DNA of 13,009 bases. Origin: a virus. The notes beneath the pieces are model-generated. The model was not told the DNA's origin and ran no database searches. It was given only the letters and a program-made list of their open reading frames with translations. Both the position numbers and the translations under genes were made by a program. How positions within the stretch are numbered: position 1 is the stretch's first letter; every line of letters begins with the position of its first letter. Below are positions 2,166 to 11,635 of this stretch, piece after piece. The stretch lies in the UHGV virus genome UHGV-1799913; one strand, given 5' to 3'.

Positions 2166-2450
2166 TTAAAACGGGCAGCCGGTACGGTGTTCCCAGTCGT
2201 ATTCCGCCTGGGCGTAAGCAACTACCGAAATGAAATCGTTGTAGGCCTCGCCAGCTTTATCGCTGCGAAGCCCTTCGTATGGGCTGGAGTCTATCGGGAT
2301 CGTGAAGTGGAAGAGGCCGGACGGCTCTTTAGGCATCATGTCGATGATTTTCTGCGCCCGGTCGTCGATCCACTTCTCTTTCTCGTCGGTGATCTGCTGC
2401 TCAGCCCAGCGCCGATCTTCGATGCGGTCGTAAGTGAGGTATGCGTTCAT
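2166..2450 (-). CDS. gam: Gam-like protein (putative RecBCD inhibitor)
   Basis: Position immediately upstream of bet; N-terminus MNAYLTYDRIEDRRWAEQQITDEKEK resembles lambda Gam short form ([30 protein letters not shown], recalled). GAGG RBS before the ATG at 2450. Confidence 0.6.
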   Translation of the reverse strand: MNAYLTYDRIEDRRWAEQQITDEKEKWIDDRAQKIIDMMPKEPSGLFHFTIPIDSSPYEGLRSDKAGEAYNDFISVVAYAQAEYDWEHRTGCPF

Positions 2451-2457
2451 GGTTGCC

Positions 2458-3429
2458 TCAGTAATGAATTTTCGCGCAGGGGATCAGGTCATCTTTCAGA
2501 GCGGTAAGCACTTCGATAGCCTGCTCGCGGGTTAAGCTGGTTTGGCTGGTGAGCGCGTTAACGATGTTGGTGCCGACCGTCTTGCGGTGCTTAACGTCAG
2601 CTTCACGCTTTGCCTGCTCATCGGCGAGGCGCTTCTCTTCGGCCAGGCGGGCATCTTCGGCCTGTTTGGCCTTCAGGCGCTCGGCTTCAACCGCCGTGGC
2701 TTTTTCGCGTTCCGCCCGGGCTTCCGCTTCCTGCTTCTCGCGAGCTGCACACTGTTCCGCTTCGACGCGCTGGCGCTCCGCCAGTTCAGCGCGGGCTTTC
2801 TCTTCGGCTTCACGGCGCGCTGCGGCTTCAATCTCCGCTTTGTGCTTCGCTTCGGCATCGCGGCGGGCTTGTTCTGCCGCTTCCTGTTTCAGCCGCTCAT
2901 CACGTTCACGCTGAGCCTGTTCCGCCAGACGGCGCTGCTCTTCGCGGTCACGGTCAAAATCCTTGTTCATCAGTAGAGCCATTTCGTGGTCCGCTTCGAA
3001 CTTGGCAGCCAGCTCCTGATCGAACCTGATGTTCATCTCCAGCGCTTCGGCGTGCATCGCGTTCATGGCTTCTTCAGCCTTAATGCGTTCCTGCTCGGCT
3101 TCCCATTCGGTGAGTGGGCGGCGGGTCGCATCGCGCAGCTCGTCGCAGGCATCAACGAATCGCTTAATTTCGGCCTCAGCCGGACGCACAGCCTCTTTCA
3201 GGCGCTTCAGGTACTCACGGCCCGGCTTTTCGATTGCCGTCTTGCTGCGGGACACCTGCGCTGCCAGAGAGGCAACACGGTCACGGCCTTTCTTCGTGGA
3301 CAGGTCCGACACTTCGTTTACAGCCTGGCGGATTTGCTCAAGGTACGCGTCAAGGCCGCCCGCTACGTAAAGCACTGGGGCCTGTTCCGGCTTGATTTCG
3401 ATGACAGTTAAGTCCGTTACTTCGCTCAT
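2458..3429 (-). CDS. coiled-coil phage protein with a long ER/K-rich helical segment (possibly DUF1351-like)
   Basis: Track ORF 2458..3543. Start moved to the internal ATG at 3429 (MSEVTDLTVIEIK...), which is preceded by AGGAGA and avoids overlap with the upstream gene. Contains roughly 120 aa of almost pure E/R/K/A/Q (EEQRRLAEQAQRERDERLKQEAAEQARRDAEAKHKAEIEAAARREAEEKARAELAERQRVEAE...). Confidence 0.6.
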   Translation of the reverse strand: MSEVTDLTVIEIKPEQAPVLYVAGGLDAYLEQIRQAVNEVSDLSTKKGRDRVASLAAQVSRSKTAIEKPGREYLKRLKEAVRPAEAEIKRFVDACDELRDATRRPLTEWEAEQERIKAEEAMNAMHAEALEMNIRFDQELAAKFEADHEMALLMNKDFDRDREEQRRLAEQAQRERDERLKQEAAEQARRDAEAKHKAEIEAAARREAEEKARAELAERQRVEAEQCAAREKQEAEARAEREKATAVEAERLKAKQAEDARLAEEKRLADEQAKREADVKHRKTVGTNIVNALTSQTSLTREQAIEVLTALKDDLIPCAKIHY

Positions 3430-3499
3430 GGTTTCTCCTGAAATTTGGATGTGCAGATCCCGCCCGCGTAATGCCAGGCCGAACGGTTGAATAGGGTGG

Positions 3500-3709
3500 T
3501 TAGTGCTGGATAGGGTTGCCGTGACCGTCAAGAAGGACGTCAATCACGCAGTCACTGAGTCGGATTATTTCTGCGTCAGTGTGCAGGTATACCCATTTGC
3601 GCTCCTGAATGACTGCTGAGACGCGATATGTGCGGCCTTCATGCAATGCCATCATGCCGGGCGTGACGCACTGGCGAATGAGCGGGGTGGTGCCGTAGTG
3701 GTTGATCAT
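3500..3709 (-). CDS. hypothetical small phage protein (69 aa)
   Basis: Track ORF; GAGGTGAAGG RBS before the ATG at 3709; ATGA overlap with the upstream gene stop. No family recognised. Confidence 0.5.
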   Translation of the reverse strand: MINHYGTTPLIRQCVTPGMMALHEGRTYRVSAVIQERKWVYLHTDAEIIRLSDCVIDVLLDGHGNPIQH

Positions 3710-3864
3710 GCCTTCACCTCAACCTGTTCCAGGAGGCCAGCGATATTCATCTGTTGGCGGTTCATCGTCAGCTTTTCACGCGGGTTAGATACCGACGTCA
3801 GCTGCCACTCGTTATCGTTGAGCTTTTTGGCGGTGTACTGCTTGCCGTTGTGGGTGACTGTCAT
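3706..3864 (-). CDS. hypothetical small phage protein (52 aa)
   Basis: Internal start of track ORF 3706..3906: ATG at 3864 (MTVTHNGKQYTAKKLNDNEWQL...) preceded by AAGGTGGTG, 1 nt after the stop of the upstream membrane-protein gene. Confidence 0.45.
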   Translation of the reverse strand: MTVTHNGKQYTAKKLNDNEWQLTSVSNPREKLTMNRQQMNIAGLLEQVEVKA

Positions 3865-3865
3865 C

Positions 3866-4075
3866 TCACACCACCTTGAATAAGAACCAGCCCATACCGC
3901 ACACAATCAGGCCCACAATGGTTATTGCGGAAGACATGCGTACATGGTCAATGGCTAGTTTTGAAAGTGGCTGGCGATGTTCTTTTTTCGTCAGCGAGTT
4001 GATTGCTATGCCGAGCAGAAACGTCCCGACAAACCATAATGCGTATATCTTTAAGCCCAACTCCAAATCACTCAT
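3866..4075 (-). CDS. small membrane protein (69 aa, two predicted TM helices)
   Basis: Track ORF MSDLELGLKIYALWFVGTFLLGIAINSL...ITIVGLIVCGMGWFLFKVV has two hydrophobic stretches; AAGAGGA RBS before the ATG at 4075. Sits where lambda carries kil/cIII/sieB-type small genes. Confidence 0.55.
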   Translation of the reverse strand: MSDLELGLKIYALWFVGTFLLGIAINSLTKKEHRQPLSKLAIDHVRMSSAITIVGLIVCGMGWFLFKVV

Positions 4076-4206
4076 AAATCCTCTTGGCCTTATCGCGGCG
4101 AACGGAACGGTTAATACAAGACTTCAACGCATTTATTCAGTGTTTCAATGGGCGGTGGATGGCCGCCGGTTTTCATAACTAAGCCGCCTCGGTGAAGCGA
4201 CTGAGG

Positions 4207-4232
4207 TATGAAAAAGCCCTCCGGAGAGGGCT
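4207..4232 (-). terminator. putative rho-independent terminator (minus strand)
   Basis: Minus strand reads GCCCTC-TCCG-GAGGGC followed by TTTTT (plus 4211-4231), directly after the stop of the 50-aa peptide gene. Confidence 0.5.
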
Positions 4233-4383
4233 ATGTGTTTCGCTTAATCATTGGGTAAGCCAGAGCAATTACACCTGCCACTAATACCCCGTCAGCCAGC
4301 ATCGACATCAACTTCCCGGTGAAATCGACAGCAATCACCAGGAAGAGGAGGACGCCGATAATCAACCAGCGCAATTTATCCAT
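4231..4383 (-). CDS. small hydrophobic membrane peptide (50 aa)
   Basis: Hand-translated minus-strand ORF MDKLRWLIIGVLLFLVIAVDFTGKLMSMLADGVLVAGVIALAYPMIKRNT, below the track cutoff. Its ATG overlaps the TerB-like stop (ATGA); strongly hydrophobic; followed by a terminator. Confidence 0.4.
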   Translation of the reverse strand: MDKLRWLIIGVLLFLVIAVDFTGKLMSMLADGVLVAGVIALAYPMIKRNT

Positions 4384-4808
4384 CAGATATAAGCGTCGAG
4401 TGATAACTGAAGAGCCTGAGCGATTTTCTTCAGCTGTTTTTCTTCGTCTTCGCCGATGCCGTCGTTATCGGCTACGTCAAGGCACAGGCAGAGCACATCA
4501 ACTGCGTCTGGAGTATCTGCCACATCTGCAAGTTCGCGCATTGCCTGGGCATTAGCAGAGCGAGGGGACGCTTCGTACTGTGCGCGAATGTTGCTGCTCA
4601 TGATGGCGATCTCACCTGCGAAAGCAGAGAACGCTGGTTTTGCCTGAATGGTTTTCTCCAGCGTTGCAATTTCTGACGCATCACAAGTACCGTCTGCATA
4701 AGCGATCGAGTAACAGCCCCACACCGTTGCTTCAACTGCGTCGCGGTTTTCCATCTTCTTCACTTCGACGATCGCCTTGCGTGCTTTTTTCTTAAACAGT
4801 CCGAACAT
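4383..4808 (-). CDS. TerB-family (tellurite-resistance TerB-like) protein, 141 aa
   Basis: Two ADG/acidic repeats (AYADGTCDASEIATLEK and DVADNDGIGEDEEKQLKKIAQAL) and an MFGLFKK N-terminus resemble E. coli TerB (MSFFDKVK...VASDGVSSEEK...AKSDGNFDDDEK, recalled). AAGAGGG RBS before the ATG at 4808. First sizeable gene downstream of the presumed pL. Confidence 0.55.
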   Translation of the reverse strand: MFGLFKKKARKAIVEVKKMENRDAVEATVWGCYSIAYADGTCDASEIATLEKTIQAKPAFSAFAGEIAIMSSNIRAQYEASPRSANAQAMRELADVADTPDAVDVLCLCLDVADNDGIGEDEEKQLKKIAQALQLSLDAYI

Positions 4809-5035
4809 TTGACTACCCTCTTGGTTTAAGCCATCAACTTGATGGCGACATTTGACTTACCGTCAGCCCCTCGTAAAGAGCTGCTGGTAAATCGTGTTGC
4901 CATAATTGCCGCTCCTCCTGAGCCCGCCTATGGTCCGACGCATGGTTTACTGTCGCGCCGTTCGACTGACCGAATCTCCACTTCGCTGCTGGCTAACTTC
5001 GCTCAGCTGTCGATGTTTCGTTTCGATGGGGTGAA

Positions 5036-5110
5036 TTTAGCGTGATGCTAAATTATGCGCAATAGCAAAATGCTAAATTGTTGAATGGTTTTATTTAGCG
5101 TATTGATTAA
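5036..5110. promoter_or_regulatory. OL-like operator cluster / presumed pL region
   Basis: Three 17-mers matching TTTAGC-N5-GCTAAA: 5036-5052 tttagcgtgatgctaaa (perfect half-sites), 5061-5077 aatagcaaaatgctaaa, 5094-5110 tttagcgtattgattaa. Lies between the cI terminator and the leftward operon. Confidence 0.45.
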
Positions 5111-10359: not shown

Positions 10360-10420
10360 TGAAGTTTTAGCAGGTAGGAATGCGGTGCGGGTAGAGCCAA
10401 ATTTGATGTATAAAACGAAG

Positions 10421-10447
10421 AAGGGGCCGACATTTGTCGACCCCTTA
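10421..10447 (-). terminator. stem-loop terminator candidate at the 3' end of the tRNA-like element
   Basis: Minus strand AAGGGGTCGACAAATGTCGGCCCCTT (10-bp stem with one mismatch) followed by a T-rich tract CTTCGTTTTAT. It could also act on plus-strand read-through from the upstream operon. Confidence 0.4.
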
Positions 10448-10539
10448 AATAGGGTGCGGGGTTCGAACCCGCGGTACGGGTTTATAGCCCGTACGCCTCA
10501 TTATCAGTGAGGTGCCATCAACCACTCGGCCAACCCTCC
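10448..10539 (-). tRNA. tRNA-like element, type II (long variable arm), anticodon GAU by fold; imperfect acceptor stem, no encoded CCA; possible pseudogene or non-canonical phage tRNA
   Basis: Minus strand GGAGGGT-TG-GCC-GAGTGGTTGAT-GGC-A-CCTCA-CTGATAA-TGAGG-CGTACGGGCTATAAACCCGTACC-GCGGG-TTCGAAC-CCCGC-ACCCTAT. Cloverleaf has a canonical T-arm (GGTTCGAAC) and Ser/Leu-like D-loop (GCCGAGTGGTTGA), a 7-bp variable-arm hairpin, and a 5-bp anticodon stem with loop CU-GAU-AA. The acceptor has a G2-A71 mismatch and a G1-U72 pair. Confidence 0.5.
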
Positions 10540-10629
10540 GTTGTACCTTGCAAGCAAGGGGTGAAAGAAATATAGCATTATGATTTAAAAAATAAAGTGA
10601 ATTATCATCGAATAACATTACCAAAAATA

Positions 10630-10680
10630 GCCATGACCACACTTTTCTTTTGTATAATCCCTCCCAAAGTATCGAGGGGG
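10630..10680 (+). promoter_or_regulatory. putative promoter (extended -10 TGTATAAT) with adjacent inverted repeat
   Basis: tgtataat at 10651-10658 followed directly by ccctccc-N-gaggggg (10659-10680), then AAGGAGAAG RBS and the GTG start at 10702. Confidence 0.35.
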
Positions 10681-10701
10681 ACTCATCAAGGAGAAGATAA
10701 A

Positions 10702-11043
10702 GTGAAATATTTGGCGATCACGTTGTTAGGAATTGGCTTTCTTATGCCCCATGCCGTTGAAGCAAAGGAATATGTATGCTCTGGAATAGCAAGGAGTATG
10801 ACCTCAAATGAAGTAAAATCCGGCGAAGTAAAGGCAAATATAACTGACATCGGAAATTCAATAACAGTTAACTTTGGGACCATTTCTTACACCACAAGCA
10901 AGATTAGGCCAGAAAAACCGGAAGGAAAGACATACCCATCTGGTGCGACTAAAGAGGGCAATATTATACAAAGACGTGGAGATGGTGATTACCGATTCTT
11001 TCAAATGTCTCAGGGTGATGTAGTGCAATTTACCTGCAAATAA
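10702..11043 (+). CDS. small secreted/periplasmic protein (113 aa) with Sec signal peptide; moron-type cargo gene
   Basis: GTG start at 10702 after AAGGAGAAG inside track ORF 10597..11043. N-terminus MKYLAITLLGIGFLMPHAVEA-KE has a hydrophobic core and an AxA cleavage motif. Mature protein has two Cys (YVCSG, FTCK). AT-rich codon usage by eye. Confidence 0.55.
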   Translation: MKYLAITLLGIGFLMPHAVEAKEYVCSGIARSMTSNEVKSGEVKANITDIGNSITVNFGTISYTTSKIRPEKPEGKTYPSGATKEGNIIQRRGDGDYRFFQMSQGDVVQFTCK

Positions 11044-11198: not shown

Positions 11199-11381
11199 AT
11201 GTCAAACGAAGAAATGACACCTGCCGAAAAATACAAAGCGGCGAGGAAGCGATATAAAAAACACTGGCTTCAATCCGATATAGCAAACGCTAAGCGCTTT
11301 GAGGCTGATGATGTGGCCCCTGTAGATGGTTACAGGTCTCCTTACGAAACGAGGAAAAAAAGAGGGAGAACAGCAGATTAA
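11199..11381 (+). CDS. small basic protein (60 aa), first gene of the moron cassette
   Basis: Start at ATG 11199 inside track ORF 11136..11381: [25 protein letters not shown]...RKKRGRTAD, Lys/Arg-rich. Stop overlaps the next start (TAATG). Confidence 0.45.
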
Positions 11382-11635
11382 TGTCACATTTTAATATCGC
11401 AGAAAAATCGAAAGAAGAGCAGGACAAGGCTAACGTGGACCTGGCTGCCAGTGGCGTAGCGTACAAAGAGCGCCTGAACATGCCGGTTATCGCTGAGGTG
11501 GTGATGCGTGAGCAGCCCGAGCATTTGCGTGATTACTTCCTTGAGCGTCTGAAGTTTTATCGCGAGAAGTCGATAGATTTACCAAGGGCATCCGATCCGC
11601 GGTACATGGAAATGGCTGATTCTAATAAAAAATAA
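11381..11635 (+). CDS. hypothetical protein (84 aa)
   Basis: Track ORF; start coupled to the upstream stop. No family recognised. Confidence 0.5.

Follow-up and report, generated by a model that had tools for sequence, protein, structure and literature searches.

The minus strand of the viral DNA stretch UHGV-1799913 (13,009 nucleotides (nt); hereafter the window, with positions counted from its first letter) carries at 10448-10539 a tRNA-like gene in which a serine-type body is combined with the anticodon GAU. We consider it very probable that this gene is genuine and that selection maintains it as a cassette ('moron') of lambdoid prophages, which comprises its own promoter, a leader hairpin, a class II tRNA derived from tRNA-Ser and a terminator, and which lies antisense in the accessory part of the early operon. 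Its anticodon has been switched to the reading of NUN codons and its acceptor end from C71-C72-G73-CCA to A71-U72-U73. As for its function, our best guess, a tentative one, is a throttled serine mis-decoder of hydrophobic codons, for which we infer all processing and charging steps.

A class II tRNA-like gene with a GAU anticodon

A single tRNA was called by ARAGORN within the window, at 10448-10539 (-) with the anticodon GAT, and the Rfam model RF00005 matched the same positions and strand with 46.4 bits (gathering score 29; E = 2.1e-07), the only non-standard pair flagged being 2:71. A first-pass annotation of the window had allowed that tRNA scanners might find nothing here or that an ordinary host tRNA had been misfolded by hand; with both programs reporting the gene the first concern lapsed, and their calls rule out the second. 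The minus-strand cloverleaf that it had drawn, with a canonical T-arm, a Ser/Leu-like D-loop and a 7-bp variable arm, was recovered element by element. The RNA is a class II (tRNA-Ser-type) molecule of 92 nt (positions 1-73) according to ARAGORN, Rfam and covariation over the nine family members described below. Read from the sequence, its 5' part is GGAGGGU-UG-GCCG-AGUGGUUGA-UGGC-A-CCUCA-CUGAUAA-UGAGG-C and its 3' part GUACGGG-CUAUAAA-CCCGUAC-C-GCGGG-UUCGAAC-CCCGC-ACCCUAU-U.

The acceptor strands GGAGGGU and ACCCUAU contain G1·U72, G2×A71 and then A3:U70 through U7:A66. The D-arm is GCCG-AGUGGUUGA-UGGC, the anticodon arm CCUCA-CUGAUAA-UGAGG and the T-arm GCGGG-UUCGAAC-CCCGC, and the long variable arm of the serine type, GUACGGG-CUAUAAA-CCCGUAC (10474-10494, -), has a 7-bp stem, a 7-nt loop and one unpaired base on each side (C44 and C48). 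The anticodon loop CUGAUAA (10501-10507, -; anticodon GAU at 10505-10503), annotated earlier as CU-GAU-AA, reads the same in the sequence, in ARAGORN and in Rfam. At the remodelled acceptor end, A71-U72-U73 (10448-10450, -) stands in all nine members where genuine tRNA-Ser has C71-C72-G73; U73 serves as the discriminator, without an encoded CCA after it. The annotation had rightly noted the G-A mismatch of the acceptor, here assigned to G2×A71, the missing CCA and the hairpin terminator directly after it (10446-10421), while it contained neither the fact that 1:72 is only a G·U wobble nor the U at the discriminator position.

A family of relatives maintains the cloverleaf

Relatives of the gene were recovered by pattern scans of IMG/VR and of metagenomes, and the family comprises nine distinct sequences with three anticodons. 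GAU is found in the window type, in loci L002, L127, L143 and L165, in L003 (loop UUGAUCC) and in L126, a soil metagenome locus in which the D-arm, the anticodon stem and the variable arm all differ; UAG is found in L004 (identical in L005 and L129; loop CUUAGGA) and GAA in L142 (loop UUGAAAG). Judged by flank similarity, the UAG type resides in lambdoid prophages of the Klebsiella type, the GAA type in a Pantoea/Klebsiella-like phage, and the family thus occurs in several genera as well as in the soil metagenome. ARAGORN also calls the relatives, and the seven that were scored with RF00005 reach 30-46 bits, all above 29. Since 11 of 5,426 complete E. coli genomes carry the 241-bp cassette with 100% identity, diverged relatives exist and all pass the Rfam threshold, the feature is more than a product of chance.

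The searches fixed different parts of the gene. When the 5' half alone was fixed, all members returned carried ACCCTATT, and when the 3' end alone was fixed, all members returned carried GGAGGGTTGGC. A search with the leader alone returned L142 and L143, both with the two ends intact, and a search with the D-arm and the anticodon stem, leaving acceptor and anticodon free, gave the same members and one normal tRNA-Ser of a large phage.

RNAalifold, run on the family, recovered the cloverleaf. When the full cloverleaf was imposed, 94.0% of the cells held standard pairs versus 84.3±1.2 in shuffles, and changes on both sides were observed in 11 of 26 pairs versus 3.7±1.2; none of 500 shuffles reached the observed value in any measure, and slid partners gave 0-4 such pairs. 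The co-varying pairs are all six aligned pairs of the variable arm, three of the anticodon stem, one of the D-stem and one of the T-stem. The acceptor helix is invariant, with G1·U72, the 2:71 non-pair and U73 each in 9/9 members, and base 74, the next after this invariant end, varies among U, A, C and G. These comparisons indicate that the cloverleaf is under selection. Because the derived acceptor end is common to all members, the compensatory evolution would postdate the acceptor change, which argues against a pseudogene, with the exception of L003, which looks degraded (C37, a T-stem A50×G64 mismatch and 30 bits).

The decayed tRNA suggested by the first-pass annotation would be a non-functional relic, that is, a captured tRNA-Ser gene that lost its 3' end, mutated in its anticodon and now travels with mosaic prophage modules. 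A 3' truncation could have initiated the change from CCGCCA to AUUN, and both the state of L003 and the rarity of the cassette (11 of 5,426 complete E. coli genomes, all identical, and no copies in cultured phages or plasmids) would suit such a history. It is, however, at odds with compensatory changes in four helices that arose after the shared derived acceptor end, with an A71-U72-U73 that does not vary next to a base 74 free to do so, and with the conservation of promoter spacing, leader hairpin (compensated in L126) and terminator. An identical anticodon loop across about 35% body divergence and the spread over several genera and soil point the same way, and we regard a relic as quite improbable.

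The anticodon loop and the serine ancestry

U33 and A35 are invariant across the family, and because of the invariant A35 all members read NUN codons, which specify hydrophobic amino acids and are frequently used in E. coli. The loop CUGAUAA is identical in the window, L002, L127 and L126, and L126 has kept it despite three replaced, compensated anticodon-stem pairs and about 35% divergence of the body. Position 37 tracks position 36, with A37 after U36 or A36 and G37 after G36, a coupling also found in genuine decoders (t6A, i6A and m1G usage). The three other GAU members carry C38 and one of them also C37. The pattern is suggestive of an anticodon loop that is competent for decoding and selected, although only three anticodons are represented.

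Sequence comparison identifies the gene as a remodelled tRNA-Ser. Its 5' 26 nt, GGAGGGUUGGCCGAGUGGUUGAUGGC, are identical to those of ordinary bacterial tRNA-Ser(UGA), and more than 110 chromosomal tRNA-Ser genes with the same 5' half (one genome per species; Deinococcota, Acidobacteriota and other phyla) were among the matches listed, at least 120 stretches in total. Those among the listed matches that were legible through the 3' end all finish with ACCCTCC-G, nearly all followed by CCA, and the chromosomal genes parsed by eye (e.g. L013) show N44, a 7-bp stem and C48 as in the window. Compared to these tRNA-Ser genes, the family has A for C at 71, U for C at 72, U for G at 73, no CCA and a changed anticodon. 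A recent copy of a host tRNA-Ser was considered and rejected, as a distant BLAST search of the 5,426 complete E. coli genomes gave no match beyond the 11 prophage copies.

The bacterial serine identity set consists of G73, C72, G2-C71, R4-Y69, C11-G24 and a large variable region (PMC9976931, Table 1). G4:C69, C11:G24 and the long variable arm are kept in 9/9 members, and the acceptor determinants are lost in 9/9, being replaced by G2×A71, U72 and U73. The variable arm is of the serine type in its 6-8 bp stem, its one unpaired base on each side and its compensatory changes, and the anticodons GAU, UAG and GAA differ from those of serine (NGA or GCU).

The acceptor end, CCA addition and charging

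All tRNA genes of E. coli encode CCA (PMC5824355); because none is encoded here, the RNA would depend on the CCA-adding enzyme. In nearest-neighbour folding the standard register (G1·U72 and a 1×1 G×A loop) gave -31.7 kcal/mol, five acceptor pairs only gave -34.6 kcal/mol, and a slipped register with C74/C75 on G2/G1 and three residues looped out gave -35.6 or -35.3 kcal/mol. The same body with a genuine serine end reached -41.4 kcal/mol, so that, relative to it, the encoded end is less stable by about 6-10 kcal/mol. In the ensemble, P(G1:U72) was 0.001, and P(G1:C75) was 0.88 with CCA added.

According to the CCACCA rule (PMC10275265), an unstable acceptor together with a 5' GG leads, in the RNA bound by the enzyme, to the looping out of three residues, the pairing of C74/C75 with G2/G1 and the addition of a second CCA; this pathway is also active in E. 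coli, where it probably leads to decay by RNase R (PMC10275265; PMC5824355). The features of such a substrate are present in the family, namely a GG start in 9/9 members, an unstable stem and, in the predicted fold, a favoured slipped register. The conserved 'defect' would then be a known type of acceptor, which may either shorten the life of the RNA or rebuild its end with G1:C, G2:C and a discriminator A. The latter outcome could serve as a maturation device, in which CCA addition, repeated once after transcription, would produce the whole of the functional 3' end and change the discriminator from U to A. After the first CCA, C74/C75 would fold onto G1/G2 with three residues from U70-U73 looped out; G1:C and G2:C would be restored, A76 would become the discriminator, and the second CCA would form a normal acceptor tail. 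CCACCA would in this case be no degradation tag, and it would set the identity of the tRNA (A73 is needed by the isoleucyl-, leucyl- and phenylalanyl-tRNA synthetases, IleRS, LeuRS and PheRS) or gate its activity on the CCA-adding enzyme and RNase R. We hold this device to be improbable.

The gene is labelled tRNA-Ile by PGAP in the E. coli genomes, a label that follows the anticodon only. The determinants of tRNA-Ile(GAU) that lie in the loop (G34, A35, U36, A37 and A38) are all present in CUGAUAA, and the others are replaced by U73, G4:C69, C12:G23, U29:A41 and a 21-nt variable arm versus a class I body. The IleRS body determinants A73, C4:G69, U12:A23 and C29:G41 have not been gained, nor have A73 and A15:U48 for LeuRS or A73 and U59 for PheRS, and the tRNA body does not change with the anticodon across the family. 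The gene is thus neither a tRNA-Ser nor a tRNA-Ile, and the annotation was correct in regarding a long-variable-arm body with an Ile-reading anticodon as a non-standard isoacceptor.

These determinants bear on whether the RNA could be a correctly charged 'rescue' isoacceptor, to which IleRS or PheRS would attach the cognate amino acid and whose foreign class II body would be invisible to a nuclease or toxin. CUGAUAA contains all five anticodon-loop determinants of E. coli IleRS, with C32 and U33 as in the host tRNA, and the loss of the serine determinants would prevent mischarging. Charging might also be helped by double CCA addition, as the slipped form with a second CCA would restore G1:C and G2:C and provide the discriminator A needed by IleRS, LeuRS and PheRS. 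Nevertheless, the remaining body determinants of IleRS, PheRS and LeuRS are absent, and the body shows no co-variation with the anticodon; the UAG member is left unexplained, as LeuRS takes no account of the anticodon; and C38 in three GAU members, with C37 in one of them, does not fit. Moreover, we know of no nuclease directed against the host tRNA-Ile(GAU), tRNA-Leu(UAG) or tRNA-Phe(GAA). We consider a rescue isoacceptor, which would need the discriminator A from tandem CCA addition, unlikely.

Phage rescue tRNAs as such are established (PMC12445682), which favours the rescue explanation, as does the presence of two P2-OLD substrates in the same prophage: conventional genes for tRNA-Asn(GUU) and tRNA-Thr(UGU) lie in sense just downstream of Q, outside the 13-kb window (L175, 27213-27366, +; L001, 9808-9882). 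The P2-OLD nuclease attacks tRNA-Thr(UGU) above all and tRNA-Asn(GUU) to a lesser extent, and a coliphage tRNA-Thr(UGU) rescues cells (PMC12445682); for these reasons the two are probably anti-OLD rescue tRNAs. Their sense orientation and position after Q are, however, unlike those of the GAU gene.

An autonomous cassette with a putative promoter, a leader and a terminator

An extended -10 element, TGcTATATT (10569-10577, -; TG at 10577-10576 and hexamer TATATT at 10574-10569), precedes the tRNA and is the putative promoter; a scan with the sigma-70 consensus returned no promoter, and no good -35 is present. TGnTA(T/G)ATT occurs in six of the seven enterobacterial members, L002 being without the TG and having a TTGATT -35 instead, and the hexamer lies exactly 7 nt ahead of the leader CCCC in all seven. 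From a predicted start at about 10562 (A), the 5' leader (10540-10562, -) would form the hairpin CCUUG-CUUG-CAAGG (10559-10546), followed by the linker UACAAC (10545-10540). Its 5-bp stem and CUUG tetraloop are shared by the enteric members, and an 18-nt leader core is identical where the tRNA bodies differ (L142 and L143), with L165 differing only just beyond the core. In L126 the leader reads CCAAC-GCAA-GUUGG, a fully compensated stem with another stable tetraloop; the hairpin is absent in L003. The leader hairpin is more strictly conserved than parts of the tRNA body, and leader conservation as strong as this is unusual for a tRNA gene. Pairing of the leader CCCCUU with the trailer AAGGGG is possible in the enteric members and impossible in L126.

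The intrinsic terminator (10410-10446, -) consists of an 11-pair hairpin (10446-10421) followed by CTTCGTTTTA, with a U-rich tail to about 10410, and it would act in one direction only, because the plus strand continues with AAATAGGG and not with a T-run. A terminator hairpin follows directly after position 74-75 in every member, with differing sequences. Beyond the promoter on one side and the terminator on the other, the loci are no longer similar and have different flanking genes; the gene is evidently an autonomous cassette which extends from the -10 element to the terminator. It opposes its neighbours in most loci and, because of this antisense orientation, we infer an independent expression, probably in the lysogen, which early-promoter read-through would oppose during lytic growth.

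Genomic setting and neighbouring genes

A phi80-like lambdoid prophage inserted next to kch in E. coli EM18-18-42 and MLI104K1 matches the window with 100% identity. The tRNA belongs to the accessory region that separates the replication genes from Q, where it lies within a 342-bp gap between two small rightward genes and opposite in direction to both. Among the 11 E. coli copies is one mosaic relative, whose early region differs in part. No family member was found in a search of plasmids or among about 50,000 deposited phage genomes; the latter gave matches only to ordinary tRNA-Ser genes, in unrelated phages, and each of the nearest phage tRNAs is a tRNA-Ser. Outside the family, the giant Caulobacter phage CcrBL9 (MH588546.1, 81826-81912; L177, 142-228, +) and about ten related phages carry an 87-nt 'tRNA-Lys(CUU)' whose D-arm is tRNA-Ser-like and whose variable region is long, and which combines an intact acceptor with the discriminator U73 and an encoded CCA; it is a second, unrelated phage class II body with a non-Ser anticodon and U73.

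This setting bears on the suggestion, also made in the first-pass annotation, of an integration-target remnant. The 3' halves of tRNAs are classical attachment (att) sites, and the gene might be kept because a satellite or island integrase uses its 3' half as attB; the L126 tRNA is indeed found between a chromosomal thiC end and a defence gene, and the L165 tRNA, in a pL-type operon, 1.7 kb from an integrase. In the window, however, the tRNA is internal, about 12.8 kb from the integrase, in a prophage that lies beside kch and not in a tRNA gene, and its cloverleaf is complete, with its own promoter and terminator. Across the family, the conservation of the whole cloverleaf, leader and promoter extends beyond any 3' core. 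No partial copy was seen as a direct repeat; the match at L131, of the 3' part only, lies inside a 223-aa open reading frame (ORF) and was rejected as a relative, with no tRNA called by ARAGORN or Rfam. An attachment site or its remnant is accordingly very improbable, and we have abandoned that suggestion.

Among the neighbours of the family loci, no conserved protein partner such as a synthetase paralogue or a nuclease was found. The only recurrent neighbour is a gene for DNA polymerase III theta (HolE/HOT-like, PF06440), present in the window (11381-11635, +), L142 (8632-8886), L143 (686-943) and L165 (4561-4806); in the three relatives it directly adjoins the tRNA in divergent orientation, whereas in the window the distance is 0.84 kb, and the two seem to travel together. 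The divergent ORF of the window (10597-11043, +; coding sequence 10702-11043, WP_039022277.1, 113/148 aa) gave no match in PHROG, Pfam or PADLOC. Elsewhere in the window, within the pL operon, a 69-aa ORF (3500-3709, -) corresponds to a RefSeq coding sequence named 'cell division protein FtsZ' (WP_000607101.1), a label implausible at this length and place; it may be a misnamed Kil-like FtsZ inhibitor.

In L126, the 3' end of thiC lies upstream of the tRNA, and a 587-aa SIR2-like protein that matches the candidate defence family PDC-S65 (698-2461, +; E = 2e-198) is encoded after it on the same strand; this tRNA may adjoin a defence island. In L003, a 580-aa AriA/PtuA/GajA-like ATPase with a possible Toprim domain (3309-5051, -) and a Dam-type methyltransferase (2368-3240, -) are encoded 0.5-3 kb downstream of the tRNA. 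The same locus contains an Rfam match to the Hfq-binding small RNA isrB (RF01386; 10328-10413, -) with 38.5 bits versus a gathering score of 35.

Possible function

We rank first, as a working proposal with considerable doubt attached, that the RNA is a throttled serine mis-decoder. This would account for all three conserved features, the Ser-type arm, the NUN-decoding loop and the invariant weak acceptor, and mis-decoding is the only reading that uses both the arm and the anticodon. The RNA would be transcribed independently in the lysogen, processed by RNase P at its 5' end and trimmed at its 3' end, which the host CCA-adding enzyme would complete, since no CCA is encoded. Seryl-tRNA synthetase (SerRS) would still bind through the intact Ser-type variable arm, C11:G24 and G4:C69. 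Both charging and lifetime would be throttled, because G2:C71, C72 and G73 are gone and because the GG start and the unstable stem would make the RNA a substrate for CCACCA addition and subsequent decay. A small charged fraction would then read AUY (CUN or UUY in the relatives) and insert serine at hydrophobic codons at a low, tolerated level. The allo-tRNAs discussed below (PMC5389517; PMC7609411) are one precedent for such a mis-decoder. In line with a throttle, a lethal mistranslating tRNA-Ser has been made tolerable by acceptor, discriminator or G·U substitutions (PMC6827378).

Several points weigh against this mis-decoder. The loss of three SerRS determinants could mean that there is no serylation at all, a CCACCA tag normally leads to decay, and constitutive serine insertion at common Ile, Leu and Phe codons should be costly, without a benefit that we can name. 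The conservation of the variable-arm helix could reflect a need for folding rather than SerRS binding, and a mere throttle would not call for an acceptor as invariant as this. In addition, nearest-neighbour energies treat G·A pairs and tertiary contacts crudely, and the family is small (nine sequences and three anticodons) and was ascertained by pattern search, a concern eased by the varied searches.

The loss of the three SerRS acceptor determinants, with none gained for IleRS, LeuRS or PheRS, and the invariance of the acceptor, as expected if a specific end is required, would also fit a non-chargeable tRNA mimic that acts by its shape, its acceptor being disabled so that it is never aminoacylated. 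We rank this mimic second, as possible but doubtful. In one version it might be a decoy or competitive inhibitor of nucleases or toxins which recognise the tRNA-Ser body or an anticodon loop of the Ile, Leu or Phe type. In another, a permanently deacylated tRNA might enter ribosomal A sites at very common codons and elicit the stringent response through RelA; the codons in question are frequent in E. coli, and we know of no precedent for such an RNA. The first-pass annotation had likewise proposed a phage tRNA-like RNA with a non-decoding role; that the gene is phage-borne and tRNA-like holds, and a non-standard role is a candidate in the sharpened forms given here.

Defence nucleases that target tRNAs are common in E. 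coli, and phage tRNAs counteract P2-OLD, PARIS and retron Eco7 (PMC12445682). All four tRNA-Ser species are lost under the action of a type I-A retron, suggesting recognition of the serine body and not of the anticodon (PMC12475279). The defence-type genes of L003 (the AriA/PtuA/GajA-like ATPase) and L126 (the PDC-S65 SIR2 protein) also favour a mimic. A decoy for a nuclease that reads the serine body, however, needs no switched and conserved anticodon loop, and one for a nuclease that reads the anticodon loop needs no Ser-type arm. No nuclease specific for tRNA-Ile(GAU), tRNA-Leu(UAG) or tRNA-Phe(GAA) was identified in this analysis, and decoys must be abundant, yet the acceptor predicts instability. 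Further ideas are the control of attenuation at ilv, leu or phe leader peptides, use by the L/F-transferase and a sponge for SerRS, and the remaining probability belongs to mechanisms that we have not thought of.

If the mis-decoder is right and the RNA is charged with serine, it would be a natural, phage-borne and deliberately throttled mistranslation device in Enterobacteria, and the idea of the allo-tRNA (see below) would extend to ordinary 7/5 tRNAs and to well-studied, testable hosts. Should it never be charged, prophages would be carrying a decoy or signalling RNA in the shape of a tRNA, relevant to the arms race over tRNA-cleaving defence. Either way, the invariant acceptor, with its GG start, unstable top and missing CCA, offers a natural test of whether tandem CCA addition is used by bacteria or phages beyond quality control. 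Annotation pipelines name such genes 'tRNA-Ile', 'tRNA-Leu' or 'tRNA-Phe' by the anticodon alone, and these labels are probably wrong.

Comparison with known systems

No earlier description of the family was found in 8 million literature full texts, searched by concept and by sequence string. The allo-tRNAs are natural Ser-type tRNAs, bacterial and phage-associated, with mostly non-Ser anticodons (Mukai et al. 2017, PMC5389517; review PMC7609411). The prophage family resembles them in the Ser-like long arm with a non-Ser anticodon, allo-tRNAs including one with an Ile anticodon (UAU), and in the concept of an anticodon-independent serine identity on a re-targeted anticodon. Unlike allo-tRNAs, which have a 12-bp branch (8/4 or 9/3), it has a 7/5 register, effectively 5+5; an 8/4 or 9/3 register was tried and rejected, as Infernal and RNAalifold give a 5-bp T-stem and an acceptor of seven positions, five of them paired, and the eighth pair would be U8×C65. 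Allo-tRNAs keep serine identity elements such as G73, whereas the prophage family is without G73, C72, G2:C71 and CCA, has so far A35 anticodons only and belongs to enterobacterial lambdoid prophages.

When tRNA-Ser is engineered to carry a non-Ser anticodon, cells survive only if second-site changes reduce its stability or its charging (Berg et al. 2019, PMC6827378; Zimmerman et al. 2018, PMC6125640). Such dampened tRNAs share with the prophage gene the non-Ser anticodon and a weakened acceptor, discriminator or G·U pair, but they are yeast laboratory constructs, whereas the prophage combination is natural, conserved and bacterial, and its mistranslation putative. With the RNAs tagged by CCACCA (Wilusz 2011 and Kuhn 2015, as summarised in PMC10275265 and PMC5824355) it shares the G1G2 start, the unstable stem and a predicted slip of 0.88. 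Those RNAs are damaged or mutant tRNAs and a mammalian tRNA-like RNA for which the tag means decay, in contrast to an encoded and invariant feature of the prophage family, which suggests that this type of acceptor may be used there, as a throttle or as part of maturation.

Like phage rescue tRNAs (PMC12445682; PMC10264068), the gene is encoded by a phage or prophage and places a host anticodon on a divergent body. Rescue tRNAs are intact and of the matching isotype, however, whereas here the body is of another isotype, the acceptor is disabled, no CCA is encoded, and the gene is antisense with its own promoter. With bacterial tRNA-Ser(UGA), finally, it has in common the identical 5' 26 nt, the D-arm, the layout of the variable arm and the type of T-arm, and it differs in the anticodon, in positions 71-73 and in the missing CCA. 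The family therefore represents a natural tRNA in which anticodon and identity disagree, and it falls outside the allo-tRNAs, tRNA-Ser and tRNA-Ile as each of these is defined.

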